A DNA stretch of 64,000 nt from a virus, in IMG/VR virus record IMGVR_UViG_3300030101_002520, positions 32,001 to 96,000 of that record; one strand, written 5' to 3'. Each line of letters starts with the position of its first letter. Positions within the stretch are counted from its first letter, which is position 1. The notes beneath the pieces were generated by a model, which worked only from the letters and a program-made list of their open reading frames with translations, was not told the DNA's origin and searched no databases. Both the position numbers and the translations under genes were made by a program. Of this stretch, positions 1,170 through 46,579 are shown in pieces.

Positions 1170-1198
1170 CTATAATTAGATTATCTCCTTAATATTTA

Positions 1199-1207
1199 GT
1201 ATATTAT
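1199..1207 (+). promoter_or_regulatory. Putative phage late promoter motif GTATATTAT
   Basis: The identical 9-mer recurs in intergenic gaps 5-33 nt upstream of + strand starts at 1199, 30946, 33279, 34604 and 41310. Confidence 0.6.
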
Positions 1208-1225
1208 TATATAGACTGTATTTTT

Positions 1226-4200: not shown

Positions 4201-4309
4201 TGATCAATTAAGAAATAGACAATATGATGATATTGATACTACAATAGAATTAGATGAAGGAACAATACAAGAACTAATAGCTGCTGGAGCAGAAATAGAT
4301 ATATTATAA
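1226..4309 (+). CDS. Modular internal virion (cargo) protein with repeated YGG / K-[AY]-Q-x-G motifs
   Basis: 1027-aa Cys-free ORF upstream of the virion RNAP. Motifs LKKYQNG, NYGSELRKAQEG, AKYGGIPKYQRAG, RAHGG, AAYGG. Confidence 0.6.
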   Translation: MYKKLKKYQNGTGIIPTEIDKTYVAPEYAFPGAYRGVGSGERSKSEIEQMMYSIFGPPPSTAEEMMQLTDDIAMTNIDLKRDMKGDNSLTRGTINLLKAIGKGIVSNPLGVFVAENIDAILTDEGPTDYQKDFLFPGVYDDRTPIIMNYGSELRKAQEGNIEDEPLYQSLKNYLDDPERAKLVAENPLLPAAEEYIYGNLLNPPQFMGDDSISIDLMAGDDGVIDANDLTLIKNESQRNLQKAGYNPDKVKTFKEYGQDALRFLGNVGRGARTAFARNPLGLLLANTVGEAYDYATTGELPEPSPYMQMLTGTFGQPDENQIYAYGDEIRDLVTPQKNPNIQNIYEGDDRFTISKMEREKEKTDKLFQEQQEYLYDESGFLNPNLDLSKNPLRNKKYTLYNPYSEDMFYDPMNPTKLFTETEYGEYQDDMTTTRTIAALNQRADMYPELFQKVTGFDPETKEITYAGDKLEGDLFSDANPDSAYLQYTTPEGEESGSFTGSLVSDAEGDITAPVYDPFDQYENDEGTYTFMEAEAKYGGIPKYQRAGTIRRIMNFFKGADDVADVAKTANTGVSKNEILQKFLQQGDNLENYNDMITRGFNIDLNSPLSRQAITNYKTKFPLNFGASDELAATTKDSKEVIEALGYDAITKRANLLDDYIAKNPGYKTSPEDFTYLGNKSGRQIVSVDTPVGTQYFYKSSGLAGKKGSKDMWVPLEGFLDDTSGMAVNRLKGNPDWFMKRGSVGTYKGQPIETISFADKTTKGVKQQLIDMGVDPNEALRSGDLILDKPGWDFAYTTNPDSFYNKLSNQLDRITQEKGWGVLDKTTRAHGGPHTEEEWEEWRQQRENYQQNNMSNESVGNEFNYYDSIAPGSYDSSVMDNMYFADQFQEKIEEDTDDEFEFADPNKPVMSVKDEERKPRDFNFKPFEALVTGLGAVNQMLENRPKDFSTNQLAMNQFQEDTRNNRGFYDVNTGILNPDRNIVERQAAYGGRTDQLRNRQYDDIDTTIELDEGTIQELIAAGAEIDIL

Positions 4310-4311
4310 TT

Positions 4312-28000: not shown

Positions 28001-30898
28001 GCCACATCAAGTGATACTATTCTAGCTTTAATGGATAAAATATTTAAAAGAAAAAGACAAGAAATATTAGATAGAGTAGAAGAAAGAAATTCAGAAGTAA
28101 GAAAGCTAGCTTCTAAAATAGAAAAACTATCTCCGGGTAGAAAAGCTAATTTTGATTTTATGATTGTGCTTGGTGATGATGGTCAACCAACTGGAACTTA
28201 TGTTAGAAAAATAGGTGACCAGTATTATAAAATGAAAAGACAAAGAACTGACAAACTTAAAAATGCTGATGGTGATCCTTTAGAATATGTAATTAAAGAT
28301 AAACTTACACCTGAAGAAATTGCTTATAATAAAAAGTTATATAAAGATAGACAGGAGTATAGAGATTTTATGAAAGCAGAAAGAGTTATAGATAATAAAT
28401 TAGAGGAAGGGAAGTATCATAAGTATAGTGATGTGTTTAAAAAAGAAAGATTGAAGTTTATGTTTTTTGATGGTCAACAATGGCAAAAAAGAGACAGAGT
28501 ACCATTAAATGAATATCTAGAGTTTAGAACTAAGTATTATAATCCATCTAGTTTTTTTAGACCAGAGTTTGATAAAGATGGATTTTCAGGTTATTTAAAA
28601 GAAAAGAAACAGGGATGGTTTGTTAAGTCTGAATATGTTGAAATTAAAGATGAGAGTTCAGAAGATTCAGGATCAGTAAATCTTTTAGACTCAAAGTATC
28701 AAAAGATTATGAATCCTACAGATGCATTGGGTAGAGCACAAAAAGAGTTCTATGAAATGTATGTTAAGTATTTTGAAGAAGATCTTCTTACAAAACTTCC
28801 TATGCGTGTTGTGCAACAAATGCACGGTAGATTACCATTAATTAAAGATACACAATATCAACAACTTAAAAATGCTCCTAATATGATGTCTGAGTTATGG
28901 GCTAAAGTTAAAGGTGTTCCGCGTGGTATATATGATTTCTTTGCAACTAAAACTCAAAAGTCAAGAGTAGTTTTAACTGATGAGTATGGTAATTTTACAA
29001 GCACACTTCCAATATTCTATACAGGTAGTATTCAAACTCAGCAAGATCTTCAAGAAATATCTGATAAGATAAGAGCTAAAGAGGATGAAATAATTAGAGC
29101 TAATGGTGATACAAGAACAACACAAACTAAAATTGATAAATTAAAACAGCAGCTTGAAGACCTAAAGGGTAAAAAAAGAAGAATGCAAAATAGACCTGAA
29201 GCAAGAGAATTAAGTAGAGATCTTGCTGATAGTTTGATAAGATTTAGTGCAATGGCTGAAAACTATGAGATTATGTCAGGTGTAGAAGATACTCTTAGTT
29301 CATTAATAAAAGTATTGGAAAGAAGAACCTATGATCCAGCAACTGGTGATGATCTTAAAACTTTTAAAGATGGTGTAATGCAAAAGGCTGGTTTGAAAGG
29401 AAACTCAGGTTTAGAAACACCGTTAATTGTTAGGAGAGCAAAGAAGTGGATGAAGATGGTTTTTTATGATGATGATCAGAAAACAGAGAATGTATTTGAA
29501 AAAATATCTAGAGGTTTAATTAGTTATACATCCTTAACATATGTTGGTCTTAACCCTTGGGGTAATTTGAATAACTATGCTATAGGTAGATTAAATAATT
29601 TAGTAGAGACAGCTGGTGGTAGATGGTTTGATAGAAAAGCTGCTGTAAGAGCAACAAAAGAATTTAATCAAAGAATGATACCAGACTTTATGAAAAGAAT
29701 GGGTGGTAGAACTTTTCTTAATGATGCTATAGGTGTAAGTCCAAGTCAATATGAAAAGTATAAACCAGGTAGTAAGTATGAGGCTCTTGTAGAATTATTT
29801 AGAATGATGGATGATAAAGCAGATATACGAGAGCAAAATAAAACTGCTGGTAAAGAAAGTCCATTAAGAAAAGCTATGAGTTGGGGTTATATGTTGCAAG
29901 ATGCTGCTGAGTATAATGTACAAACCAAGCTAGGTATGGCAATACTAATGTCTACTAAAATATTTAAGAGTGCTGACCCAGATGGAAGTAAAAGTGCTAT
30001 ATCTTTATTTGATGCTTATGAGTACAACCAAGAAACAGGCAAACTATCTCTACAAGAAGGGTATGATACAGTTATAGATTTTCAAACAGGCAAGCAACAA
30101 AAGATGTCTGATAAAGCAAGATATGATATTAGACAATACATACGTGAGGTTAACATACATGTACATGGTAACTATGCCTATGAGGATAGAATGGTATTAC
30201 AGTCTAGCGCATTAGGACAACTAGCTGCACAGTTTCATAAATGGATTGCGCCAGCTGTTAAGGCAAGATATAGATCAGAATATTTTGATGAAAATCTAGG
30301 TTGGATAGAAGGTAGGTATAGAACCTTTTGGAATTTTATGTCTTATACGGCTAAGAATATGACAGATATTAGAACAGCAGCTAAAGACTGGAAAGAGTTG
30401 CAGGGAGAGAAAGCAGAAATGAAAGTTAAAAATCTTCATAGAGTTGCAGGTGAGTTAATGTTATTTATGATGACAGTAATGTTAAGACAGATGTTTGCTG
30501 CAATGTGGGATGATACAGATGAAGATAAAAAAGGAACAATGAAAAGATTTCAAAATGCTTTTATGTATCAAATGGATAGACAAAGAAGAGAACTTATTCA
30601 GTTTGTAAATCCTGTAGATGCATTTATGTTAATGAAGTCTCCAATTAGTTCTGTAAGAATGATGAAAGAGATGTCTGAAGCATTAATGACTGGTGTACAA
30701 ACACCTTTTGTTATTGGATCATATAAACTACGTGGTGAAGGAGATGTAGAATTAGATAAAAGAATATATTATCAAAGAGGTGCTAAGAAAGGAGATCTTA
30801 AACTTTACAAAGAATTTTATGACGCATTCCCAGGTCTCTACGCATTAAACAGATGGATGTCATATGACAATGTAAAAAACTTCTGGGTAGGAGAATAA
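25082..30898 (+). CDS. Large ejection protein: degenerate zincin-like domain, LysM, PD-(D/E)xK nuclease domain, long helical C-terminus
   Basis: AIEEVLHPF...ELVTQA (HExxH-like with H to E). YSIKKGDTIASIAKSLGTTIKKIKELNP...LYVP (LysM). IAGTIDLL...IIDIKTS...QVNSY (PD-(D/E)xK). TAATG coupling to the RNAP gene. Confidence 0.75.
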   Translation: MATCFNRNLPAYQTLLEKYDSPMFVDGVINGWQKVNRSELMPTVLEAEDFLKDQKEVGVLDKQNLKQSILTNLGVKGKGLISRFGESYYINNTNKEVRAIKGDVQTLERNKNSVERLLDWWQVTPEAVTITKTDNSYRLDINANLLNMQDVITETSDVTHLQDILQHLTRLFPDVQIQVMSETDAKRMYNSLPQFTSEFQKPIDFKDIKSFYVDGQAILVEGRVTSETAIEEVLHPFVNALYADKSELFRRLKTESERSFPKLAQEIAGAYTKTKGFDNIDRDKELVTQAMARHFKREYEQNPTESFRSKIREFMRWLMDVFRDLSKWVVGKDLVLAPGMIDNANNLTSLSKILNTGDLKFGLDRAIRQDRKVRFSLTPKFQKIYNKVKGKATSQKQITRLDDLYNVSINSQKPIDDFTVSMSKKKNHPLVILNKKTHKYISVENINDPFTSVTTKIGGFSSKSYSIKKGDTIASIAKSLGTTIKKIKELNPIGDNLNTLTKANGQPIKQLYVPQEDFQINMDIGNDFDSIVSAIVLDEGIDSVDLKVVSKEVAEDFYKKMKKDLAVLTRNGGILIPQVVVSDKLNQIAGTIDLLFMDENGALEIIDIKTSKDSLNALVNGKLKYEETYFPVTYGSIFYDPAKSHADQQKFTKEQMQALQVNSYAQILRNQDYDIDSTFTYHVHTPTTGKGINQKYTQKFVIEGIRTQSETADVLIGDPGNNNFASEMMVKDFSDPTANDKLFTLDKKTGENEIEVDESEIDAIAENVTSKMMSTESVLEQITDFRVAMSTRKENYQRVKNQIAFFKDGKDVVQEIDRTLAIIDAGVEDGNVIPLFEEIVKQSIKELDDFIEYVNNPDSYLLDDKYISKVLNYSKMVSTYESLSEVEKAKGLTKAQLQLLEELRGKIYTINGKRDGLGNIIEGKEGLINTAIDNFAKQFIKDNSKRDFTQEDLEDILRWGSDMGMIEYQTGTLATSSDTILALMDKIFKRKRQEILDRVEERNSEVRKLASKIEKLSPGRKANFDFMIVLGDDGQPTGTYVRKIGDQYYKMKRQRTDKLKNADGDPLEYVIKDKLTPEEIAYNKKLYKDRQEYRDFMKAERVIDNKLEEGKYHKYSDVFKKERLKFMFFDGQQWQKRDRVPLNEYLEFRTKYYNPSSFFRPEFDKDGFSGYLKEKKQGWFVKSEYVEIKDESSEDSGSVNLLDSKYQKIMNPTDALGRAQKEFYEMYVKYFEEDLLTKLPMRVVQQMHGRLPLIKDTQYQQLKNAPNMMSELWAKVKGVPRGIYDFFATKTQKSRVVLTDEYGNFTSTLPIFYTGSIQTQQDLQEISDKIRAKEDEIIRANGDTRTTQTKIDKLKQQLEDLKGKKRRMQNRPEARELSRDLADSLIRFSAMAENYEIMSGVEDTLSSLIKVLERRTYDPATGDDLKTFKDGVMQKAGLKGNSGLETPLIVRRAKKWMKMVFYDDDQKTENVFEKISRGLISYTSLTYVGLNPWGNLNNYAIGRLNNLVETAGGRWFDRKAAVRATKEFNQRMIPDFMKRMGGRTFLNDAIGVSPSQYEKYKPGSKYEALVELFRMMDDKADIREQNKTAGKESPLRKAMSWGYMLQDAAEYNVQTKLGMAILMSTKIFKSADPDGSKSAISLFDAYEYNQETGKLSLQEGYDTVIDFQTGKQQKMSDKARYDIRQYIREVNIHVHGNYAYEDRMVLQSSALGQLAAQFHKWIAPAVKARYRSEYFDENLGWIEGRYRTFWNFMSYTAKNMTDIRTAAKDWKELQGEKAEMKVKNLHRVAGELMLFMMTVMLRQMFAAMWDDTDEDKKGTMKRFQNAFMYQMDRQRRELIQFVNPVDAFMLMKSPISSVRMMKEMSEALMTGVQTPFVIGSYKLRGEGDVELDKRIYYQRGAKKGDLKLYKEFYDAFPGLYALNRWMSYDNVKNFWVGE

Positions 30899-34880: not shown

Positions 34881-35288
34881 ATGGCAACTACTACAGCACA
34901 GTTAAAATTAGATAGTGCAGCTGGAAGTTTATTAACTTCTGTATTGGCTATTGATGATACAGCAACACTAACTAAATTAGGAACAGCAACTGGTTTAGAA
35001 AAAACTACCGGTTTAGCTAGGCAAACATTTGCAGCAGCAACTGAAACTCAGTTAATAAACGCTGCTAATTATACAGCAGCTAAAGGACATAAACTGTATA
35101 TAAAAAATACGGATACTTCAGGTACTGATACTGTAAAATTGACATCAGGAACAATAGGTGATGTAAAGTCAATAGGCTATCTAGATCCAGATGATTGGGC
35201 TTTTATACCTTTTGGAGGAGAAAATGATATAAATGTAATATGTACATCTGCAACAACTGTAGTTGAATGGATGTTAATTTTTGAATAA
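34881..35288 (+). CDS. Small beta-sandwich putative virion protein, paralog 1
   Basis: MATTTAQLKL..LYIKN..LDPDDWAFIPF..VEWMLIFE, a pattern shared with 35307, 35709 and 36863. Confidence 0.6.
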   Translation: MATTTAQLKLDSAAGSLLTSVLAIDDTATLTKLGTATGLEKTTGLARQTFAAATETQLINAANYTAAKGHKLYIKNTDTSGTDTVKLTSGTIGDVKSIGYLDPDDWAFIPFGGENDINVICTSATTVVEWMLIFE

Positions 35289-35306: not shown

Positions 35307-35684
35307 ATGGCAACTTTAACCGCGCAAACTAAATTAACAGTATCAGATATAGTAGCTGATGCTATTGCATTAGATGTATCAATGACTCCTACTGTATTAG
35401 CAGGAGGTATTACAAGTAAAACTTTAACATCTGCAAGAGCAACAGGTTCTGCTTTAACTATTGTAGAAGCAACTCACTATAGTGCAGGTACTATAATTTA
35501 TTTAAGAAATATGAGTAGTACAGAAACTATAGATGTAGAATTAACGTCAGGTACAACGCATATTCAATTAAGTCCTTTACAGTTTGCATTGTTTCCTTGG
35601 GAAGCAGCAACTGATATAGAAGTATATTCAACTAATGGAAGTGAAGTTCCTCAGTTAGAAGTAGGGATATTCTCTGCAGCATAA
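35307..35684 (+). CDS. Small beta-sandwich putative virion protein, paralog 2
   Basis: MATLTAQTKL..IYLRN..LSPLQFALFPWEAA..LEVGIFSAA. Confidence 0.6.
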   Translation: MATLTAQTKLTVSDIVADAIALDVSMTPTVLAGGITSKTLTSARATGSALTIVEATHYSAGTIIYLRNMSSTETIDVELTSGTTHIQLSPLQFALFPWEAATDIEVYSTNGSEVPQLEVGIFSAA

Positions 35685-35708: not shown

Positions 35709-36092
35709 ATGGCAACTTTAACAAGTCAAGTAAAATTAGATATTTCAGGAGTAACTTCTGATCCTATTTCAATAGATAAGAGTTTTTCATATACTGCATT
35801 ATCTGGAGGTGTAACTAGTAGATCTATTGATGCTACAGCTCATGGTTCTGCAGAGAAAATTTTAGAATCTAGTGAGTATTCAACAGGATGTGTTGTTTAT
35901 GTAAGAAATAGAGAAGCTGCAGGAGGTAAATCAATAACAATTATGTTATCAGCAGCAGCAAATGGAGAAATAGTATTACAAGGTCAGCAGTGGGCAGTAT
36001 TTCCTTGGCCAGCTGCAGTAGATGTATTAGCCTTTGCTTCATCTGCTACTCCAGGACCTATATTAGAAGTAGGAATATTTTCAGCAGCATAG
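35709..36092 (+). CDS. Small beta-sandwich putative virion protein, paralog 3
   Basis: MATLTSQVKL..VYVRN..LQGQQWAVFPWPAA..LEVGIFSAA, with a C-terminus identical to paralog 2. Confidence 0.6.
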   Translation: MATLTSQVKLDISGVTSDPISIDKSFSYTALSGGVTSRSIDATAHGSAEKILESSEYSTGCVVYVRNREAAGGKSITIMLSAAANGEIVLQGQQWAVFPWPAAVDVLAFASSATPGPILEVGIFSAA

Positions 36093-36095
36093 GTT

Positions 36096-36380
36096 ATGGC
36101 AAAAGAATTATCAGAAGATTCAAAGTTTGAAATAAGTCTAAAGACACTTGGTGGTATAGGTTTTCTAATTACTACACTTGTAAGTATGTGGTTTGTATTA
36201 CAAGCAGATATTGCTGAAGCTAAAGAACTTCCTGTACCCCCTCCGCCTGATGTTACTAGGATGGAGTTTCAGATGAAAGATGAAAACATAAGACTATCAA
36301 TAAAGAACACAGAAGAGAATGTAAAGAAATTGGAGGATAGACTTATAAGGATAGAGGATAAAATAGATGACATGAAATGA
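36096..36380 (+). CDS. Single-TM membrane protein with Pro linker and C-terminal coiled coil
   Basis: TM LGGIGFLITTLVSMWFVL, PVPPPP, heptad-like tail. ATGA overlap with the thioredoxin-like gene. Confidence 0.65.
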   Translation: MAKELSEDSKFEISLKTLGGIGFLITTLVSMWFVLQADIAEAKELPVPPPPDVTRMEFQMKDENIRLSIKNTEENVKKLEDRLIRIEDKIDDMK

Positions 36381-36742
36381 AATGGATAGTTTTAATATGC
36401 CTATTATTTTCTTATATATGTAGTGGGCAAGAAGTGCTGACTGATAAAACATTTAGTGATAGTCAAGAAGGTGTAACAGTTGTAGAATTTTGGGCAGATT
36501 GGAATGCAAAAAATGAATGTGCATGGTTACAAGATTTAGAAGATGCAGAAGTATATAGAATAGATCTTAATACAAATGCTGCTAAAGAAAATAAAATAAC
36601 AGTTTTACCTACTGTTATAGTTTTTGATGATGGAGAAGAGGTTGAAAGGTTTGAAGGAGATATTTCTTTTAGTCTTTGTCCAGAAAAAACACCTAAAAAG
36701 GTACAAAAAGAGATTAATGAATTAGTATTAAATAAATTTTAA
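36377..36742 (+). CDS. Secreted thioredoxin-fold protein lacking CxxC
   Basis: Signal peptide ending SG|Q. VVEFWADWN (WCxxC degenerate), ITVLPTVIVFDDGEEVERFEG (cis-Pro loop). Confidence 0.8.
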   Translation: MKWIVLICLLFSYICSGQEVLTDKTFSDSQEGVTVVEFWADWNAKNECAWLQDLEDAEVYRIDLNTNAAKENKITVLPTVIVFDDGEEVERFEGDISFSLCPEKTPKKVQKEINELVLNKF

Positions 36743-36743
36743 T

Positions 36744-36842
36744 ATGAAAAAATTTTTATGTAAATTATTATGTATAGTTAGTTTTAACTATATATGTTTA
36801 AAATGGTGTGATGACAAATCATGCTGCAAAGACAAGTGTTAA
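36744..36842 (+). CDS. 32-aa Cys-rich microprotein (not in ORF track)
   Basis: MKKFLCKLLCIVSFNYICLKWCDDKSCCKDKC*. Starts 1 nt after the previous stop and fills the gap. Confidence 0.55.
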   Translation: MKKFLCKLLCIVSFNYICLKWCDDKSCCKDKC

Positions 36843-36862
36843 ATTAAATAAATTTAAGAAAT

Positions 36863-37234
36863 ATGGCAACTTTAACGAGTATAATTCAACTTTCTACAAG
36901 TGGTGTAGCAAAAGATAGAGTAAATTTTACATGTTCTAAAATATCAAATGTAAAAAATCCTGCTATCCAAACTGGTACTTTAGATATTTCAACTATTGCT
37001 ACTATAGCTACTGCACCGGCAGGAACAAGTTCAAGTGATGGAATGTACATGTATGTAAGAAATTTAGACCCTACAGCTCATTTAGATCTTACTTTTGATA
37101 GTAACAATACATTAAAAGTAGGACCAGGTGAAATGAGTTTTTTCTGTGTACATGATTCTAGAGTAGTAAAAGGTACTGCTAGTACTGGAACTATAAAGGT
37201 TGAATACGGCACATGGACATTAGATAAGTATTAA
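36863..37234 (+). CDS. Small beta-sandwich putative virion protein, paralog 4
   Basis: MATLTSIIQL..MYVRN..VGPGEMSFF..VEYGTW. Confidence 0.6.
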   Translation: MATLTSIIQLSTSGVAKDRVNFTCSKISNVKNPAIQTGTLDISTIATIATAPAGTSSSDGMYMYVRNLDPTAHLDLTFDSNNTLKVGPGEMSFFCVHDSRVVKGTASTGTIKVEYGTWTLDKY

Positions 37235-37252
37235 AAGTAATACTTATTTAAT

Positions 37253-40234
37253 ATGAGACAACTAATATTCTTTTTATTAGTTCCTTTTCTCTTGTTTTCA
37301 CAAGAGTCTTGGATAAATGTGCAGTTATTAACAGATGATTATCCAGAAGAAACATCTTGGACTATAACTCCTCCAGGTGGATCACCAATTATTGCACAGT
37401 CTGATTCTATAATGCAAGATCAAACTTTGTATGATACAATAGTTGATCTTGGAGGAACTATTATTTTTTCTTTATTTGATGAATATGGAGATGGATTAGG
37501 TGGCTTTAATGGTTCACCAGAAGGATGGCTTTTAGTACAAAATGATTGTCAAGATACTATATTATATGTAGCAGGTGATTTTGGTTTTGATTATATAGAT
37601 ACATTAACCATAGCTCCCTGTGCTCCCCCTCTTGCTGGATGTCTAGATTCTTTAGCAATAAACTTTAATCCTCTTGCAACTGTAGATGATGGCTCATGTG
37701 AGTATCCAGGTTGTGATGGGATTCTTACATCTAATGCATATGATATATGTATAGGTGGAGGAACACAAACACAAATTATATTTGAATGGACATTAGATGA
37801 TTACAATCCTAATTGTGAAGTAACTAATGTTATTGTATCAAATGAAGAAGGTTTAGGTCCTCTAAATCTTCCACCAGCTCCCGTAAATAACTTTGGCTTT
37901 ATAGCAGGTAATGGACAAATGCCACCTAACTGGAGTGTAGAGCACTACTGTGTATTAGAATTTCTAGATGGTTCTATATCTGATACAATAGTTTATACAC
38001 CATCTCCATGTATTGCTGGTTGCACAGATCCCACACAAATAGCTTATAACCCATGGGCAACATTTGATGATGGTACTTGTACAGGAACATCTTGTGATAC
38101 AACATCTCAGTATCAGATTACAATGGAGATTATGTTTGACAACTGGCCAGGTGAAACAGGTTGGACAATGGTAACCAATTCTGGACAAGATATGCAAATG
38201 CCAAATGGGTCATATAACTTTCAAGATATAGGACAAACATATACTTATACATTTTGTGTAGATCAAGTTGCACCATGGGAATTAATTGTTACAGATGATT
38301 ATGGTGATGGTATGGCTGGATCTTCTTCAGGAGGTAATATGGATGGTACAATTGTAGTTTATGATTGTGCTGGAGATACTTTATGGAATATGGATAATCC
38401 TGGTTTTGGTGATGTATTATACTCAGGAGCACAAAATGCAAACCCCTGTCCTACTGTACCAACAATACCCGGTTGTGTAGATGATGATTATGTTGAGTTT
38501 AACCCAGAAGCCAATGAAGATGATGGATCATGTGCTACACTACATACTTATGGTTGTATTAATCCAAATGCTTTTAATTATGATCCTAGCGCAACTATAA
38601 TGGATTTAGTTCCAGACTGCAACTATGAACTATGGATAGGTGATGCAGGTGGTGATGGTTGGGGTAATTCTTACTTGGGAATTATGCAGAATGGTCTCAT
38701 AATAGGTACATATACAATGGGTCCAGGATCTTATGAACAAACATTTGGTCTTATACTAGATCCAGGTGTGCCAGTTGAAGTATATTACTTTGAGGTAGGA
38801 GGGCCACAGCAACCACCTCAAGAAGTAGAGTTTCAAACCTGGCACAATTCATTTAAGCTAACCAATGCTAATGGTGTTGAGCTAATGTATGAAGGTTATA
38901 ATCCATTTGCAGATAATGGTCAAGGTGCTTTACAAAACTTTACATCTCCTTTCTGGACAAAGTATATAGAGATACCCTTTTGTGGGACATACTGTATACC
39001 TACAGTTGTTGGTTGTTTAGATCCAACAGCATATAATTATAATGAAGAAGCTAACACTGATGACGGATCATGTGAACCTATAGTAGAGGGATGTACAAAT
39101 GATTTAGCATTTAACTACAATCCAGAAGCTAATGTAGATGATGATTCTTGTGTAGCTCTTGTAGTTGGATGTACTGATTCTTCTGCTTGGAACTACAATG
39201 CAGATGCAAATGAGGATGACGGTGCTTGTATATACCTAGGTTGCACTGACTCTTCAGCATGTAACTATAATCCAGGTGCAAATGCAGATAGTGGAGGATG
39301 CACTTATCCTGATCAATACTATAATTGCAGTGATGTATGCATAAATGATACTGACTCAGATGGAATTTGTGATGAGCTTGAAATACTAGGGTGTACTAGT
39401 GTAGCTGCTATTAACTATATGCCGGAAGCAACTGATGATGACGGCAGTTGTGTTGGTATAGTATACGGTTGTACAGATCCCACTGCTTTTAATTATGACG
39501 CTACAGCTAATACAGACAATGGTTCATGTGTGCCTGTAATATATGGATGTATAGATAGTACAGCATTCAACTATGATCCAACTGCTAACACAGATAATGG
39601 CACTTGTATAGAATTTGTATATGGTTGCATAGATGAAACAGCTCTTAACTATGATCCACTAGCAAATACTTTAGATAACTCTTGTTGTTATCTTGGAGGT
39701 TGTACTGATGCTACTGCACTAAACTATGATGAAGATGCTTGTTTTGATGATGGTAGTTGTGTAGTTATAATAGAAGGATGTGCTGACCCTAATGCATACA
39801 ACTATGATCCGCTAGTTAACTTACCAGACAATAGTGTTTGTTTATATGATGCTGGTTGCTATGGTGGACCTGGAGAACCTTATTGGTTAAATGATCCTTG
39901 TTATGCTTGGGTTATAGATATAGATGGCTATTGTTGTACTGAACTATGGGATGAAACTTGTCAATCAATGTATAACTACTGTGAAGATGGTTGGCCTGTA
40001 GATCTAGATGAGTTATCAGGTAGTGATATAATTGTTTATCCTAACCCTACAGCAAACACATTTACTATAGAAACAAGATTAAATGTAGATGTAGAACTTT
40101 ATAACATAGTAGGAGAGCTTATACAAACAAATAATATTAAAAGAATAGATTTATCAGATTATCCAAATGGTATGTATAATTTGATTATTACATATGATAA
40201 AATAAGAATAACTAAGAAGATAATTAAACTATAA
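37253..40234 (+). CDS. T9SS type-A sorting-domain cargo protein with 14 Cys-flanked GCxDxxAxNYxxxAxxDDGSC repeats
   Basis: Signal peptide FS|Q. Repeated DxYPxETxW...DxYGDG modules. CTD IIVYPNPT...LYNIVG...IDLSDYPNGMYNLII...TKKIIKL. Confidence 0.88.
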   Translation: MRQLIFFLLVPFLLFSQESWINVQLLTDDYPEETSWTITPPGGSPIIAQSDSIMQDQTLYDTIVDLGGTIIFSLFDEYGDGLGGFNGSPEGWLLVQNDCQDTILYVAGDFGFDYIDTLTIAPCAPPLAGCLDSLAINFNPLATVDDGSCEYPGCDGILTSNAYDICIGGGTQTQIIFEWTLDDYNPNCEVTNVIVSNEEGLGPLNLPPAPVNNFGFIAGNGQMPPNWSVEHYCVLEFLDGSISDTIVYTPSPCIAGCTDPTQIAYNPWATFDDGTCTGTSCDTTSQYQITMEIMFDNWPGETGWTMVTNSGQDMQMPNGSYNFQDIGQTYTYTFCVDQVAPWELIVTDDYGDGMAGSSSGGNMDGTIVVYDCAGDTLWNMDNPGFGDVLYSGAQNANPCPTVPTIPGCVDDDYVEFNPEANEDDGSCATLHTYGCINPNAFNYDPSATIMDLVPDCNYELWIGDAGGDGWGNSYLGIMQNGLIIGTYTMGPGSYEQTFGLILDPGVPVEVYYFEVGGPQQPPQEVEFQTWHNSFKLTNANGVELMYEGYNPFADNGQGALQNFTSPFWTKYIEIPFCGTYCIPTVVGCLDPTAYNYNEEANTDDGSCEPIVEGCTNDLAFNYNPEANVDDDSCVALVVGCTDSSAWNYNADANEDDGACIYLGCTDSSACNYNPGANADSGGCTYPDQYYNCSDVCINDTDSDGICDELEILGCTSVAAINYMPEATDDDGSCVGIVYGCTDPTAFNYDATANTDNGSCVPVIYGCIDSTAFNYDPTANTDNGTCIEFVYGCIDETALNYDPLANTLDNSCCYLGGCTDATALNYDEDACFDDGSCVVIIEGCADPNAYNYDPLVNLPDNSVCLYDAGCYGGPGEPYWLNDPCYAWVIDIDGYCCTELWDETCQSMYNYCEDGWPVDLDELSGSDIIVYPNPTANTFTIETRLNVDVELYNIVGELIQTNNIKRIDLSDYPNGMYNLIITYDKIRITKKIIKL

Positions 40235-41292
40235 TGAGAACAGTTCTTTACATATTACTACTTCTATCATTCACGATAAACGCACAAGAAGAAAATAAAT
40301 TTAAAAAAGAACTTAAAAAAACTTTTAAATTCTCTACATTCTATGCTGCAGTAAACGGTGGTACTTCTATTTCAGATCAGAATACATATTCTATATTAGA
40401 TGGACTTCAAACCGATGTAATAGAAACTCCATTTGATTACGCACTAACTTTAGGTGTAAGAAAGATACAAAGATTTGGATACGAGAACAAGGCTAACACA
40501 TTCAAGGATGGCACAGAGTCTTCATACTCTGATGCCGCTACTATTGGACGAACTAGAGGGTTTGAGTTTTTGTTTGAGGCAGATTACAAAAGACAACAAG
40601 GTGACTCTTATGTAGACCAACATCACTTCTTACGATACCTAGCAGACAAATGGGTTGTTAAGGTAGAGTATCTACAAGACGGTTTTGCTGATGTAGAGTA
40701 TCTAGAAGCATCACAACGATATAGACAAAAGATAGGCAAAAGATTTTCACTTACTGCAGGGGCAGCACAAAGGATATCCGAACCATATGGTTATGATCCT
40801 CTAGCTGAATGGGTATTATCTAACGGAAACATACACTACACAAACCTTGCTTTAGAAGAAGGGTACACCATTGCATTTGACCCAACAGGAATAGAGTATC
40901 TATCTCCTAATGGATCTGTTGCAGCTACAAGTACAGAAGTCTGGGAAGAGGTTGTTATACCTCAAGTTATAGATGACTATGTTAAAGCAAGCAAAGATGC
41001 ACTCCCTGTACAATGGTGTCACTCTCTTGTAGTAGGTCTTGATTATTACTACTACACTAAGAAGATCTGGTTACACTCATGGGCAAATGTGCTCCCTTAT
41101 CACCTCAATACTGGGGGTGAATACTCATATCATAATTTCAATGGTGGTAATTGGATAGATTATTCTGGCGGATTAATCTTTGGATATAAGATTAACAGGA
41201 ACCTTGGAATCTTTATTGAAGGTAAATACAATAAGTATTGGAATAGAGATTGGCATGACTTCAAGTTTGGAATAAATTATATCATTCTTTAA
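40234..41292 (+). CDS. Putative outer-membrane beta-barrel protein
   Basis: Signal peptide INA|Q. Alternating aromatic amphipathic strands, C-terminal FKFGINYIIL. TAATG-coupled to the T9SS cargo. Confidence 0.7.
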   Translation: MRTVLYILLLLSFTINAQEENKFKKELKKTFKFSTFYAAVNGGTSISDQNTYSILDGLQTDVIETPFDYALTLGVRKIQRFGYENKANTFKDGTESSYSDAATIGRTRGFEFLFEADYKRQQGDSYVDQHHFLRYLADKWVVKVEYLQDGFADVEYLEASQRYRQKIGKRFSLTAGAAQRISEPYGYDPLAEWVLSNGNIHYTNLALEEGYTIAFDPTGIEYLSPNGSVAATSTEVWEEVVIPQVIDDYVKASKDALPVQWCHSLVVGLDYYYYTKKIWLHSWANVLPYHLNTGGEYSYHNFNGGNWIDYSGGLIFGYKINRNLGIFIEGKYNKYWNRDWHDFKFGINYIIL

Positions 41293-41309
41293 TTTCTAGG
41301 TATTTTTTT

Positions 41310-41318
41310 GTATATTAT
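41310..41318 (+). promoter_or_regulatory. Putative late promoter motif GTATATTAT
   Basis: Intergenic, upstream of the ATG at 41342. Confidence 0.65.
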
Positions 41319-41341
41319 TATATAACCAAAACCGTATTTAT

Positions 41342-41491
41342 ATGAACTGGATAAACAGTTGGCGTGAGGGAAACAAGAAGAATATTGTTGATCTTACATT
41401 TAGATTTGGGGTATTAACCCTGTTTGAATTAAATTGGAACCCGAAGAAAAGCTTCAGGTTAATAGTATTAAACTTTGGATTTGAAATATAA
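41342..41491 (+). CDS. 49-aa hypothetical protein (not in ORF track)
   Basis: MNWINSWREGNKKNIVDLTFRFGVLTLFELNWNPKKSFRLIVLNFGFEI*, downstream of the promoter motif. Confidence 0.6.
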   Translation: MNWINSWREGNKKNIVDLTFRFGVLTLFELNWNPKKSFRLIVLNFGFEI

Positions 41492-41562
41492 TGTGTGTGT
41501 GCCCAATATGTGTTATAGTAGCAGCTGTTGCTATAGTAAGTTATAAGCTAATTAAAACATAA
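41491..41562 (+). CDS. 23-aa CxCPxC + TM microprotein (not in ORF track)
   Basis: MCVCPICVIVAAVAIVSYKLIKT*. TAATG-coupled to the preceding ORF. Confidence 0.45.
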   Translation: MCVCPICVIVAAVAIVSYKLIKT

Positions 41563-41566
41563 TATT

Positions 41567-41797
41567 ATGATGAAAGGATTAAAAAATGTTATGGTCACTG
41601 ATCAAAGAACTCAGATGACTTTTTGTGCAAGCTGTAAAAGCTGTCCTGCAATTGATATTTCCAAAGACTCAGACAAAGTTATTGTTGGAGGTGATGACGA
41701 AGGTTACACTGAGTTCACCAAAGATCAATTTGCTTTGTTTGTGAAAACAGTTAAGGAAGGTATGTATGATAAGTACCTTCCTGAAACTAAAGATTAA
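41567..41797 (+). CDS. Small Cys-containing protein, possibly DUF397-like
   Basis: CASCKSCPAIDI...VIV...EFTKDQFALFVKTVKEG resembles the DUF397 pattern CVEVA..V.V..L.FT..EW.AF..VK.G. Confidence 0.45.
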   Translation: MMKGLKNVMVTDQRTQMTFCASCKSCPAIDISKDSDKVIVGGDDEGYTEFTKDQFALFVKTVKEGMYDKYLPETKD

Positions 41798-41799
41798 AG

Positions 41800-42060
41800 A
41801 TGGCAAAAAAGTGGATACAGGATGCAATAAAGAAACCGGGATCTTTAACAGCAGCAGCTAAAAGAGAGGGTAAAAGTATTACAGAATATTGTAAGACACC
41901 ACCTTCCACTAAAGCAAAACAAAGGTGTAATTTAGCTAATACCTTAAGAAAAATAGCTAAGAAAAGAAAAAAGAAAGCTTGTGGCGGATCAGTTATGTTT
42001 TGTGGTGGAGAATATCATTCACCAGTTAAACAAGCTGTAGGCCCAAATAAAATTTTATAA
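41800..42060 (+). CDS. Small basic phage protein with CGG motifs and VGPNKIL tail
   Basis: KWIQDAIKKPGSL...RCNLANTL N-domain, and KACGGSVMFCGG...AVGPNKIL. Confidence 0.65.
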   Translation: MAKKWIQDAIKKPGSLTAAAKREGKSITEYCKTPPSTKAKQRCNLANTLRKIAKKRKKKACGGSVMFCGGEYHSPVKQAVGPNKIL

Positions 42061-42062
42061 CT

Positions 42063-42437
42063 ATGGCAGCAAAAGGCCCACTAAGAAATATGTTACTTAG
42101 GCTTTTAGGTAAAAGTAAAAATGTTACTACAAACGTTCCTACAGGCCCTATTAAAGGAAGTCTTGATGAAAGTTTTCAAAAATTTGTTATAAAAAATAAC
42201 ATGTTAAATCAAAAAGGATTTTTTGGACCAGGTGGTTATAGAGGAGGTGTAGATAATTTTCAAAAAAGAATAGATCAATTAAAACTTAATACAAAACCTA
42301 AAATGACTTTGGAGGAGTATCAAAGGAGTATTGATAACTTAAGATTACCAGATAATCCACCAAATTCAGGTAAACAATTGGATTTATTTAAAGATAAAAA
42401 AAAGGGTGGAAGCGTAGGACCAAATGGAGTGTTATGA
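42063..42437 (+). CDS. Small basic protein with KKGGSVGPNGVL tail
   Basis: 124-aa ORF with an amphipathic N-helix. Confidence 0.6.
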   Translation: MAAKGPLRNMLLRLLGKSKNVTTNVPTGPIKGSLDESFQKFVIKNNMLNQKGFFGPGGYRGGVDNFQKRIDQLKLNTKPKMTLEEYQRSIDNLRLPDNPPNSGKQLDLFKDKKKGGSVGPNGVL

Positions 42438-42685
42438 AACTATTTAATAAGTTAAGGAAAAGAAGAATAAGTAATAAGATTAATAAACTTAATCAGGAGA
42501 CTGAAAATCTTCAAGGTAAAGGTTATGGTGTATTTCAACCTGCATGGAATGAAGGTGGTAAACAAATTGTAAAGAATACAAAGAAAGTAATGGATTTACA
42601 AGATAAATTAAAAAAGTTAAGTAAAAAACATTGCGGTGGAGGTATGATGTGTGGAGGTGCTGTAGGACCAAATGGTATATTATGA
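42434..42685 (+). CDS. Small basic protein with CGGGMMCGGAVGPNGIL tail
   Basis: 83-aa ORF with ATGA overlaps at both ends. Confidence 0.6.
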   Translation: MKLFNKLRKRRISNKINKLNQETENLQGKGYGVFQPAWNEGGKQIVKNTKKVMDLQDKLKKLSKKHCGGGMMCGGAVGPNGIL

Positions 42686-43182
42686 AAAAATTAATTACAT
42701 TTTTATTACTAGCACTAACTGCACTAGTTTATGGGCAAGATAAAAATGTAAGACCAATAGATGTAGTAGAGAATATAAGTGTATACTTTGTAGACACAGC
42801 TTATTATAAGTCTTTGACACTTGACTCACTACATATACAAAATGTAACTGAGTTTGTTTATGTATCAAACGCAGTAGCTGACACACTAGTTGTGCCTGTT
42901 ATAGAATTTGTTGAGAGAGTTACAGTTGATACGCTACACATACACGTACCTGAATGCAGAGTAGAATATGTAGAAGTGTATGTAACCGAAGAATTATTGA
43001 TGCAGGATACTATTGTAGAGATAGAATTTAAAAATGCACTTATAAGTTCTAACTCAGGAGTTCAAGAGATTTTAGATAAATCTTTTGGTAATAATATACT
43101 ATATGATCTTCAAGGTAATCAAATAAGAAGACCAATGGGAGTTTATATAGAGAATGGTAAAATAAAGTATATAAAAATTTAA
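42682..43182 (+). CDS. Secreted protein with short T9SS-like C-terminal domain (start revised to 42682)
   Basis: MKKLITFLLLALTALVYG|Q signal peptide. V/D/T-rich beta repeats (DTA, DSL, DTL, DTL, DTI). Tail ILYDLQGNQIRRPMGVYIENGKIKYIKI. Confidence 0.7.
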   Translation: MKKLITFLLLALTALVYGQDKNVRPIDVVENISVYFVDTAYYKSLTLDSLHIQNVTEFVYVSNAVADTLVVPVIEFVERVTVDTLHIHVPECRVEYVEVYVTEELLMQDTIVEIEFKNALISSNSGVQEILDKSFGNNILYDLQGNQIRRPMGVYIENGKIKYIKI

Positions 43183-43193
43183 AATTTAAAGTT

Positions 43194-43916
43194 ATGCCCG
43201 CAAATATGAAAAAATCTGGAATGTCATACAAGAAAGGAGGTTCCAAAAAAATGTACGGAGGTACAATGAAAAAAAAGAAAATGTATGGAGGAACCATGAA
43301 AAAGAAAATGTATGGTGGCTCCAAAAAGAAAATGATGAAGAAAGGTGGAATGATGAAAGCTAATAAAGGTTTAGAGAAATTAGCTGAAGCAAATCCTGAG
43401 CTTACGTATACAAAAAAAATGTATGGTGGTATGGCTAATCCAAACAAAGATGAAATGATGATGTATGGTGGTGCTATGTATAAAAAGATGATGAAGATGG
43501 CAGGTGGTCCAATGATGAATGAAGAAGGAATGAAAGTACCAGGTATGATGAAAGCTGGTGGTGGATTAAGAAAAATGCCAGGTGGTGGTTACATGAGAGA
43601 TATGGATCTACCTAAAGCACAGTCTGGACTTTTTACAAAAGGTCTTAAAGGAATAGCAAAAAAATTGGGAAAAGGTAAAATAACAAATCCAAGCACAATA
43701 GATAATGTGAATGTGAAGAAAACTCTTTTTCAAGGTGTAAATAAGAAAGGTGAACAGGTTTTTAAATTAGGAACAGATGGTAATGTATTTACAAAAAAAG
43801 ATAATGCAATGGCTCCTTTTTTACAGAATAAGGCAAAGATCTTAGAAATATTAAGGGGAAACAATCCTACAAAAAATAAAGTTTATAAAAAAGGAACTTT
43901 ATATGGTCCTAAATAA
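43194..43916 (+). CDS. Met/Lys/Gly-rich low-complexity protein with tandem KMYGG repeats
   Basis: Ten xxGG motifs (five MYGG), then LPKAQSG and a basic C-domain. Confidence 0.7.
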   Translation: MPANMKKSGMSYKKGGSKKMYGGTMKKKKMYGGTMKKKMYGGSKKKMMKKGGMMKANKGLEKLAEANPELTYTKKMYGGMANPNKDEMMMYGGAMYKKMMKMAGGPMMNEEGMKVPGMMKAGGGLRKMPGGGYMRDMDLPKAQSGLFTKGLKGIAKKLGKGKITNPSTIDNVNVKKTLFQGVNKKGEQVFKLGTDGNVFTKKDNAMAPFLQNKAKILEILRGNNPTKNKVYKKGTLYGPK

Positions 43917-43928
43917 AAAAAATAAACT

Positions 43929-44324
43929 ATGAGTATACTAAAAAAGATTTTTTCAGGTGCCGGAAGCAACCTGGTAGAATCAGTTGGCGGTGTGATTGAT
44001 AATTTAGTAACAACAGATGAGGAAAAATTAGAAGCCAAAAGAAAACTAAAAGAACTCATTATGAGTCATGAGGCTCAGATGGAGAAGAACATAACTGACC
44101 GTTGGACAGCAGATATGAACTCTGACTCCTGGCTGAGTAAAAATGTAAGACCCATGGTTCTTATATTTTTAATTGTATGTACTATGCTATTGATCTTTAT
44201 TGATGCTGGTGCACTTACGTTTACAGTAGAAGAGAAGTGGACAGATCTTTTACAATTAGTTTTAATTACAGTAATAGGTGCATATTTTGGTGGCCGTTCT
44301 GTAGAAAAATTTAAAAAGAAATGA
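43929..44324 (+). CDS. Holin, GTA 3TM-holin-like family
   Basis: VGGVIDNLVTTDEEKLEAK...DSWLSKNVRPMVL + TM...VIGAYFGGRSVEK. Confidence 0.8.
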   Translation: MSILKKIFSGAGSNLVESVGGVIDNLVTTDEEKLEAKRKLKELIMSHEAQMEKNITDRWTADMNSDSWLSKNVRPMVLIFLIVCTMLLIFIDAGALTFTVEEKWTDLLQLVLITVIGAYFGGRSVEKFKKK

Positions 44325-44938: not shown

Positions 44939-45063
44939 TGGCAGCTAGAAACACGTTTACATTTAGAAGCAATGGTGGTAAGAAAAGAAGAGGTGTCCAC
45001 AGTAAAAATGCTAGCAAATCTCAAAATGCCTATAAGAAACCCTATAGAGGGCAAGGAAGATAA
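44938..45063 (+). CDS. 41-aa highly basic peptide ending KKPYRGQGR (not in ORF track)
   Basis: MAARNTFTFRSNGGKKRRGVHSKNASKSQNAYKKPYRGQGR*. TAATG-coupled and ends at the terminator. Confidence 0.65.
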   Translation: MAARNTFTFRSNGGKKRRGVHSKNASKSQNAYKKPYRGQGR

Positions 45064-45096
45064 AAAAGAGGAGACTATTGATCTCCTCTTTCTTTT
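45062..45096. terminator. Bidirectional intrinsic terminator at the convergent module junction
   Basis: AAAGAGGAGA-ctattga-TCTCCTCTTT flanked by A and T runs. Confidence 0.75.
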
Positions 45097-45700: not shown

Positions 45701-46579
45701 TTAAAATATATATCTAATTTTATTCCAAGGTATTACGTTATCATGTTCTTTTATAAATGCATCAATAAATTGTTCTTTTAATTTATGTTTATATCTAACG
45801 TTTCTACCTCCATACTGTGATGTTTTACTCTCCTGCAGACTAGGTGTCCACAAATCTATTTCTTGTTTTTCTTTATGATCTATTAAGTTTTTATAATGTT
45901 TATTCTTGTTATGTGTTAAAAATATACACTCAGCATAAACACCTTCTTCATATCTTACATTGTTATTTATTAAAGCAAATAACTCTTCATAGTCATCTAA
46001 CCAGCCTTCATAAACTAATATGGGACTAAAGTTAATATGAACATCATATCCTGCTTCTTTAAACTTATCTATTGCTTGTACTCTTTCTAATATTGTTGAT
46101 GTATTGGGTTCATGTAATGCACGTTTCTTTTCAGGCATCATACTAAACCGTATTCTAATCTTCTTGTTTGGATTGTATTTAAGTAATTCTTTGTTAACAT
46201 ATTTAGTTGCAAAGCTTCCCATTATATCTTCATTATACTTGAAAAAATCAAATATAAATTGCCAATCATGGTATTTACAATGAAGAGCAAAGTCTTCATT
46301 ACAACTAATATCATATGTAATATATTTTGGATGTGTTTGATTTGGTTTTTTTGTTTCTAGTTTTGCAAATATAGAATGGTTGTTTATCTCTGTAAGTATT
46401 TGGTTTGCATTTGTTGCTATTGATAATCCTTCAGGCTTGTGCCTTTTCATATAACAATATGAACAATCATATAAACATCCCCAACCAAAGCTTGGAGATA
46501 TAAAGTCTGTAGATCTACCCGAAGGTCTAATCTTCAGACTTTTTCTAATATCTCTAGTGACTAATGTCATATCTTCCAC
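45701..46579 (-). CDS. Spore photoproduct lyase-like radical SAM enzyme
   Basis: GCLYDCSYC (CxxxCxxC), DISCNED, SFATKY, RIRFSMM, EPNTSTILERVQA...AGYDVHINFSPIL..EGW follow the SplB motif order. Confidence 0.85.
   Translation of the reverse strand: MEDMTLVTRDIRKSLKIRPSGRSTDFISPSFGWGCLYDCSYCYMKRHKPEGLSIATNANQILTEINNHSIFAKLETKKPNQTHPKYITYDISCNEDFALHCKYHDWQFIFDFFKYNEDIMGSFATKYVNKELLKYNPNKKIRIRFSMMPEKKRALHEPNTSTILERVQAIDKFKEAGYDVHINFSPILVYEGWLDDYEELFALINNNVRYEEGVYAECIFLTHNKNKHYKNLIDHKEKQEIDLWTPSLQESKTSQYGGRNVRYKHKLKEQFIDAFIKEHDNVIPWNKIRYIF

Follow-up and report, generated by a model that had tools for sequence, protein, structure and literature searches.

Why should a phage carry, at the end of its late genes, a set of proteins that appear to be made for the envelope of its host? 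This question is raised by a 64,000-nucleotide stretch of viral DNA (hereafter the window), bases 32001-96000 of the 115,139-bp IMG/VR virus record IMGVR_UViG_3300030101_002520, which was judged 98% complete. Its source is an uncultured marine crAss-like phage of Bacteroidota; we infer Bacteroidota as the host because the exported proteins follow the rule of Gln at position +1 after the signal peptide, because one of them bears the C-terminal sorting domain discussed below and because the genome is crAss-like. The genes in question encode a short transmembrane (TM) coiled-coil protein (TMcc), an exported thioredoxin-fold protein (Trx), a large secreted Cys-rich protein (BIG), an outer-membrane β-barrel and a small exported protein, sm167. 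A preliminary description of the window had proposed that the phage uses them to hijack the host type IX secretion system (T9SS). From sequence comparisons and structure models we propose, with a probability of roughly 0.4, an undescribed envelope-spanning module that would act at the outer-membrane lysis step, with BIG as a T9SS-routed, barrel-associated surface cargo. As judged from its relatives, the conserved core of this module is the trio of barrel, TMcc and redox-dead Trx, not the T9SS cargo.

The lysis reading comes from the neighbourhood of the module in other phages. With a profile of divergent Trx members we fetched 80 loci of other, smaller phage lineages and labelled them by hidden Markov models built in this work. 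Trx was present in all 80, TMcc in 78, the barrel in 69, endolysin-like genes in 69 and a holin in 46. Typically the genes run barrel-spC-TMcc-Trx-M15 endolysin-holin, and their stop and start codons overlap (spC is a cargo family defined below); in L135, for example, these six genes occupy 3.6 kb (1072-4641). Six loci, all from one barrel clade, have the order barrel-TMcc-Trx-endolysin-holin without any cargo (the cargo-free trio was named in L149, L173, L177 and L179). In the crAss-like set, where TMcc was found in 72 of 91 loci, TMcc, Trx, a BIG-like protein and the barrel occur together in about 74 loci in two gene orders, and L034 reads BIG-barrel-TMcc-Trx-M15-holin. The holin lies at most 3 kb from the module in 57/60 and 42/46 of the loci in which it is within the fetched stretch. 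The module is recurrently linked to holin and endolysin genes in independent lineages.

This linkage extends to L089, an unrelated phage that encodes GroEL, PhoH and a terminase of its own, in which TMcc, Trx, a second TMcc (TMcc2), an M15 endolysin and a holin follow each other with overlapping genes; its record (61.5 kb, 100% complete) contains no barrel. The TMcc-Trx pair alone with endolysin and holin would also be expected if two independent units merely travelled together, namely TMcc-Trx as a regulator or component of lysis, and barrel plus cargo as a two-partner-like export pair working independently of T9SS. In such an arrangement the barrel would be a dedicated translocator or anchor, and the T9SS tag of BIG a secondary acquisition in some lineages. 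That barrel and cargo are adjacent and co-vary agrees with it. The six loci in which the barrel stands directly in order with TMcc-Trx, without cargo, speak against such independence, and we consider it rather improbable. The sequences show a layered, phage-only module: the TMcc-Trx pair, to which the barrel and then the cargo are added.

TMcc (36096-36380, + strand, 94 aa) starts with a conserved N-terminal tail (MAKELxED...), followed by one TM helix at about residues 18-37, a Pro-rich linker and a C-terminal coiled coil. W32, R55, E57, K61 and D62 are invariant in an alignment of 23 sequences, and the protein is probably oriented N-in/C-out. No Pfam family matched TMcc, and a PHROGs scan of five module proteins yielded no match save a weak one of TMcc to phrog_12220. 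Directly upstream of TMcc in L026, L032, L043 and L047 we noted a family of about 70 aa (f35) with an N-terminal coiled coil and a C-terminal TM helix, which is absent from the window.

The gene for Trx (36377-36742, + strand, 121 aa) overlaps that of TMcc by 4 nt. Trx passes PF00085 narrowly (25.6 bits, cut-off 23.5), and its family profile matches solved thioredoxins in the PDB with E 2.6e-10. In place of WCxxC it has WNxxN. Both N43 and N46, as well as the cis-Pro 'PT' and the C-terminal Phe, are invariant in 38 aligned relatives; the same alignment has no conserved Cys and a cleavage site (↓) of the form A/G/S↓Q, with Gln at +1 in 38/38 sequences. The family is large, with 1274 representative clusters (50% identity) at E<=1e-3 and 377 at E<=1e-10, and among its 150 best members [WFY]NxxN occurs in 98 and WCxxC in two. 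By sequence, Trx is a thioredoxin fold but no oxidoreductase, since the CxxC active site is absent, and the CxxC-less thioredoxin coupled to a TM coiled-coil protein, as the preliminary description had it, holds. Redox-inactive binding domains of thioredoxin fold, such as the b' domain of protein disulfide isomerase, have a cis-Pro loop and no catalytic cysteines. Trx likewise keeps the cis-Pro loop without catalytic Cys and is plausibly a binding module rather than an enzyme; unlike the b' domain, however, Trx is a periplasmic phage protein in its own right, its WNxxN is invariant, and Trx is present even where there is no Cys-rich cargo. A weak tblastn match to a WNxxN thioredoxin (30% identity, E 3e-5) was seen in the hypothetical protein at the genome start of the ssRNA phage SRR5466337_2 (NC_073930.1:199-444).

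Four proteins of the locus carry Sec signal peptides that, as judged by eye, are cleaved before Gln: Trx (MKWIVLICLLFSYICSG↓Q, before Q18), BIG (residues 1-17, MRQLIFFLLVPFLLFS↓Q, ending ...PFLLFS↓Q), the barrel (...SFTINA↓Q, before Q18) and sm167 (...ALVYG↓Q, with its true start at the ATG at 42682). This had already been described, and Gln +1 is kept in relatives beyond the aligned Trx: a simple heuristic of h-region plus Q found it in 68/77 barrels, 56/63 BIG and 56/60 Trx. Export in Bacteroidota style, by Sec signals cleaved before Gln, thus stands. It also bears on the idea that the proteins belong to the virion, with BIG as a fibre for instance, for which the location among late genes and the repeats that BIG has in common with a virion structural protein (see below) could be cited. 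Four cleavable Sec signal peptides and a T9SS tag are unsuited to virion assembly in the cytoplasm, and we regard this idea, like an origin of the region from host DNA or misassembly, as very improbable.

The barrel gene (40234-41292, + strand, 352 aa) overlaps that of BIG by 1 nt. An AlphaFold2 model (pLDDT 75.7) has 12 strands, an N-terminal helix (17-31) and a large loop insertion (183-259). The family consensus ends in NYIIF, and the copy in the window in ...NYIIL. With the signal peptide, the even, closed strand number of the model and the C-terminal aromatic β-signal, the protein is predicted to be an outer-membrane β-barrel. Its fold matches are generic barrels of this kind (Z 8.7-10.5): EstA (Z 10.5), OmpG, NanC, TamA and FapF. 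That autotransporter and FapF translocators, with 12 strands and an N-terminal helix, are among the nearest folds would suit a dedicated export pair of barrel and cargo. Relationship to the PorP/SprF barrels of T9SS was not apparent. PF11751 (PorP/SprF) matched 0/53 barrels at E<=1, nor did any other Pfam family match beyond chance. A comparison with PorV, which is FadL-like, gave Z 8.8 (6h3i_F), no higher than unrelated barrels, and the model is 12-stranded as opposed to the 14 strands of the FadL type.

A midpoint-rooted tree of the barrels, in which kin share labels, splits deeply into a spC-partnered and a BIG-partnered clade, with 3 label changes versus 43 in shuffles. Conservation between the two clades is densest at residues 66-105, which in the usual barrel topology correspond to strand 2 and the first periplasmic turn, and lowest in the loop 183-259. 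The pattern would fit a conserved periplasmic partner and a variable outer partner. This suggests that the barrel has a periplasmic partner beyond its variable cargo, which is not readily explained if barrel and cargo form a unit separate from TMcc-Trx. In four barrel homologues (L064, L065, L070 and L045), a lipobox-like N-terminus (...L[IV]AC↓S..., then CC[SAG]Q) replaces the plain A↓Q site; these barrels may be lipidated.

The second exported pair begins with BIG (37253-40234, + strand, 993 aa). Its signal peptide is followed by β-sandwich domains with DxYGDG motifs, about 14 GCTD repeats, a Cys-rich domain and a type A C-terminal domain (CTD) for T9SS sorting. At least 11 of the repeats follow the strict pattern C-x-[DN]-x-x-A-x-N-[YF], and no tandem repeats were found in BIG at the DNA level. 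BIG has 53 Cys, whereas the five giant late proteins scored (window 1226-30898, about 9,900 aa) have two in all, 0-1 each; Cys content sets the exported proteins sharply apart from those that stay in the cytoplasm or are ejected. The Cys-rich domain (about residues 866-915, 39848-39997, + strand), delimited in an alignment of BIG relatives, reads PYWLNDxCYAWVIxVDxYCCxxxWDxxCQxxYxYC and stands directly before the tail in all of them. Alignment positions C25, W28, C36, C37, W41, D42, C45, Y49 and C52 are invariant. β-sandwich domains, GCTD repeats and Cys-rich domain make up the core common to all BIG relatives. Even in close kin BIG is hypervariable: beside barrels that are 96-98% identical stand BIG proteins with 54-68% identity and 1151-1337 aa.

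The CTD lies at the extreme C-terminus (residues 928-992 of 993, 40034-40228, + strand) of a protein with an N-terminal Sec signal peptide. It scores 41.2 bits with TIGR04183 (cut-off 23; 45.2 bits for the C-terminus alone) and 42.9 bits with PF18962 (cut-off 27) and is, on these profile scores, a bona fide type A sorting domain. phmmer of BIG against the PDB gave only a marginal CTD match. The 993-aa repeat protein with a type A CTD, coupled to a barrel, had thus been recognized correctly in the preliminary description; as to the T9SS hijack, the CTD on BIG stands, but it is not a conserved principle. Only 17 of 47 distinct C-termini (46 BIG proteins and sm167) pass TIGR04183, and in other loci the cargo is devoid of a CTD or absent altogether. 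The failing C-termini have a remnant tail of about 35 aa (...ITDLLGRP...LFYIYDDGTVEKKxIK) that aligns with only two CTD strands, and TIGR04131 (type B CTD) matched 2/47 tails at E 0.007. Across the BIG family the T9SS tag is hence dispensable. In the barrel tree, the short tails all fall into one derived subclade, while full CTDs occupy basal or scattered positions within the BIG clade. With the caveat that the tree is midpoint-rooted, this argues against the CTD as a late add-on, as an export pair without T9SS would have it.

A model of BIG residues 282-585 (pLDDT 76.9) contains two β-sandwiches linked by two disulfide knots. The PDB matches are weak, with Z 6.9 for a Ca-dependent carbohydrate-binding module (CBM) and Z <6 for C2/PLAT-like folds; we rejected any assignment of function from them, since all are weak β-sandwich matches with Z <8. 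Sites of the O-glycosylation type, D-[ST]-hydrophobic, had been described as numerous in the locus. Counted as D-[ST]-[AILVMT], they are enriched only in BIG (9, z 2.2) and sm167 (5, z 7.1), and there are none in TMcc, Trx or the barrel. GCTD repeats of the BIG type, four in number, were also seen at genome positions 29247-29520 in a 2979-aa virion structural protein (phrog_37948, phrog_15100) encoded upstream of the window (genome 21498-30437; L100:9498-18437).

Complex prediction, which the preliminary description had suggested for the barrel and its partners, was run for barrel residues 18-352 and the last 135 residues of BIG. The median ipSAE was 0.46, compared with 0.01 for the best control, with a partner pLDDT of at least 68 and an agreement between runs of at least 62% of contacts. 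In the calibration of the tool the mark was reached by 58/80 solved complexes and 2/110 mismatches, and scores of <=0.60 were seen in only 7 of those 80 solved complexes and in both passing mismatches, so that the value of 0.46 lends weak support to a contact between the barrel and the BIG C-terminus. Docking of cargo on the barrel nevertheless gains a modest plus from the prediction, with gene adjacency and co-variation as prior.

If one looks at BIG first, a surface-display device might come to mind. Host Sec, the β-barrel assembly machinery (BAM) and T9SS would bring BIG, together with sm167, to the surface of the infected cell, with the phage barrel as anchor, and Trx would be a TMcc-tethered periplasmic holdase for the Cys-rich cargo. 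Such a device could mask receptors, exclude superinfecting phages, keep the progeny away from debris or mediate adhesion, and the link to lysis genes would reflect shared late timing only. The canonical type A CTD fits well here, as does the hypervariability of BIG among near-identical phages, reminiscent of receptor-interaction proteins. With its GCTD repeats BIG could compete with the 2979-aa virion protein for the same ligand, and its CBM/C2-like β-sandwiches, for all the weakness of the matches (Z <=6.9), would be in line with display. The barrel clade follows the cargo type, the predicted contact with the BIG C-terminus agrees within its calibration, and phage-borne T9SS cargo has precedent (PMC7468147, PMC6949934). 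However, in one barrel clade the trio exists without cargo, and in the complete genome of L089 the TMcc-Trx pair is found without a barrel inside a holin-endolysin cassette. Chaperoning cargo can therefore not be the core function. Furthermore, most BIG relatives and all spC proteins are without a CTD recognizable by any model, and proteins made only late, minutes before lysis, would have a short useful life on the surface. For the cargo half, surface display is a live alternative; as the principal role we consider it possible but doubtful. Of the purposes put forward in the preliminary description, namely superinfection exclusion, grazing defence, aggregation and nutrient capture, none gained support from the present data.

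The second cargo of this phage, sm167 (42682-43182, + strand, 166 aa), leads back to the loci with lysis genes. We defined the spC family in this analysis by a profile of 56 barrel-adjacent proteins from other lineages, and hmmsearch found sm167 with it at E 1.7e-19 over profile positions 115-236. In spC proteins a signal peptide is followed by a Cys-rich domain resembling low-density lipoprotein receptor class A (LDLa) domains, a Pro-rich linker, an acidic DT/ET β-repeat region and a tail, YNLxGQxIxxPxGIYIxxGKIKYK, which is the most conserved part. The strong conservation of this short tail would also suit a two-partner-like export pair. Pfam Ldl_recept_a matched weakly in 18/27 spC members and not in sm167. 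The latter ends in YxLxGxxIxxPxGxYIxxGKxKY and is, by its alignment, a truncated spC member which has the repeat region and the tail and lacks the LDLa-like N-terminal domain. The CTD-like tail that had been ascribed to it does not hold up: no CTD model matched sm167 or 27 spC members at E<=0.1, and a motif-level alignment brings out a resemblance to CTD motifs D and E only. In the crAss-like set, spC is restricted to the close kin of the window and to L085/L086, which have a full spC and a divergent barrel without BIG. The spC profile does not detect BIG; homology of BIG and spC is therefore unsupported.

Is the module really a phage possession? The preliminary description had left room for host DNA, and we therefore compared the occurrence in phages and in host chromosomes. 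Gene order is kept in more than 170 viral contigs. For the barrel we confirmed 93 IMG/VR relatives, of which 80 were kept; a large metagenomic protein collection holds 3644 relatives on phage-sized contigs (the longest about 115 kb), all lacking a Pfam domain and an informative name, and the ESM Atlas clusters nearest to the barrel are 100% viral. A scan of prokaryotes (185,579 species, one genome each) returned seven matches, all on contigs of metagenome-assembled genomes with inconsistent taxonomy (Flavobacteriales, Winogradskyella and Sphingobacteriales, also Rickettsiales and Nitrosopelagicus). They represent phage contigs that were binned wrongly, and no isolate genome among the 185,579 species contained relatives. 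The gene set is hence phage-borne, and with the uniform base composition along the window, the synteny in viral contigs and the lack of isolate-genome relatives, misassembly with host DNA was ruled out. Among cultured and GenBank phages, tblastn with BIG, the barrel, TMcc and the barrel and Trx of the second lineage found nothing useful, and a literature search found no paper describing the trio of barrel, TMcc and Trx.

Based on these observations we may speculate how an envelope-spanning lysis module would work. Late in infection, its proteins would leave the cytoplasm via host Sec, and BAM would insert the barrel. TMcc and Trx would then join the barrel, at its conserved periplasmic face, in an assembly that spans the envelope and acts at, or times, the final outer-membrane lysis step, in the place that two-component spanins take in phages of Proteobacteria. 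Cargo would dock with its tail on the variable outer face of the barrel and be displayed or released at the surface. This phage would have two cargos, namely BIG, which is hypervariable, disulfide-rich, adhesin-like and routed via host T9SS, and sm167. A bolder version, which we think is less likely than the general proposal and on the whole doubtful, is that phages of Bacteroidota have, in the trio, a machinery of their own for disrupting the outer membrane, a third kind in addition to spanins and cationic disruptins, in which the cargo (spC or T9SS-routed BIG) would be the surface-side element that destabilizes or marks the outer membrane at lysis.

The comparison with two-component spanins of the lambda Rz/Rz1 type, for which we used the survey by Kongari et al. 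2018 (PMC6139136), is instructive in both directions. Like an i-spanin, TMcc is predicted to sit in the inner membrane by a single N-terminal TM helix and to expose a coiled coil to the periplasm. In both systems there is an overlap with the gene for an exported partner, the genes stand in or beside holin-endolysin cassettes, and together with an outer-membrane component the proteins could span the envelope. By inspection the architecture of TMcc fits that of i-spanins; its gene is embedded in the cassette in relatives and lies 7.5 kb from the holin here. In contrast, Trx as the exported partner has a thioredoxin fold and a signal-peptidase-I site and is not a small Pro-rich lipoprotein, the outer-membrane part is a 12-strand barrel, TMcc is short, there is a large secreted cargo, and sequence similarity is lacking. 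The lipobox and Cys of an o-spanin lipoprotein are found in neither candidate, as Trx has no conserved Cys and the barrel of the window is no lipoprotein. For phages of Bacteroidetes, a survey reports unimolecular spanins only (PMC12596118).

Several points weigh against a role in lysis. The link comes from gene neighbourhood, and the late region also holds structural-type genes (the pA family, g315). In this genome the holin is 0.7-7.5 kb away from the module and small unrelated genes intervene, and the only endolysin-like gene found, a YkuD-like one, is about 35 kb from the holin and outside the window, from which it follows that the lysis genes are dispersed here. Trx has a signal-peptidase-I site and no lipobox, the predicted periplasmic part of TMcc comprises just about 58 residues, and membrane fusion of the kind attributed to o-spanin lipoproteins is not something a β-barrel can do. 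The size and hypervariability of BIG fit host-interaction proteins better than lysis proteins. Finally, the topology of TMcc and the orientation of the barrel loops were deduced without a dedicated predictor.

Outside the lysis context, two known systems resemble parts of the module. Phage-encoded T9SS-tagged proteins were described in the 'Cryophage' (Bellas et al. 2020, PMC7468147) and in gut crAss-like phages (de Jonge et al. 2019, PMC6949934). These are likewise secreted phage proteins with a type A CTD that vary strongly between near-identical phages of Bacteroidota hosts. In contrast to BIG, however, they are enzymes or BACON-repeat proteins and are not accompanied by a barrel of their own, a dead thioredoxin or a TM coiled coil, and neither report has a link to lysis genes, while in the family described here the CTD is dispensable.

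A parallel on the host side is the pair of SprB and SprF, in which a large, repeat-rich T9SS type B surface protein is encoded beside its cognate, co-varying barrel of about 350 aa from the PorP/SprF family. The BIG gene also adjoins an outer-membrane barrel of about 350 aa that co-varies with it; it differs in that PF11751 does not match, the CTD is of type A and the barrel is phage-only.

Bacteroidota are a dominant phylum of both ocean and gut, yet there is little explanation of how their phages get through the outer membrane. The module is a concrete candidate for this missing lysis step, as it is conserved, abundant (the 3644 barrels and more than 1200 Trx clusters at 50% identity), phage-only and located in or next to lysis cassettes. 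If our proposal is true, the phage would supply its own outer-membrane protein and at the same time borrow the host T9SS. The module could also be used as a marker for Bacteroidota phages in metagenomes.

With regard to its genomic setting, the module is among the last genes of the late block on the + strand. A bidirectional terminator (45062-45094) ends this block; with this sole exception, σ70-type promoters and terminators were not above shuffles. All open reading frames of the preliminary description were recovered at the same coordinates. Behind the barrel follow four small basic proteins (41567-42685), sm167, a low-complexity protein of 240 aa (43194-43916) and the holin (43929-44324, + strand, 131 aa; phrog_3427, E 1.4e-32; PF11351 GTA_holin_3TM, 25.1 bits at a cut-off of 24.8). 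The latter is the recognizable lysis gene closest to the module and lies on the same strand in the same late block. The YkuD-like gene (genome 110303-110932) is a relative of a family, f39, that adjoins the holin in other phages. The record also encodes a portal protein, a major head protein, several PHROG 'virion structural' proteins, giant late proteins of 4979 and 1938 aa, a ribonucleotide reductase and a DNA polymerase.

Between Trx and BIG lies pA4 (36863-37234, + strand, 123 aa), an interleaved small paralogue outside the module. It is the fourth copy of a family of about 125 aa, the others being at 34881-35288, 35307-35684 and 35709-36092. These paralogues start with MAT(L/T)T..Q.KL, are without signal peptide and known family, and number 135 copies among 63 related loci; they also occur near lysis genes in other phage lineages. 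At 41800-42685, three successive small basic proteins share a C-terminal tag, ...VGPN(G/K)(I/V)L, behind a GG motif. A gene of the spore-photoproduct-lyase family of radical SAM proteins (45701-46579, - strand; PF20903, E 5.8e-26) marks the end of the early block and is kept in 30 related loci.

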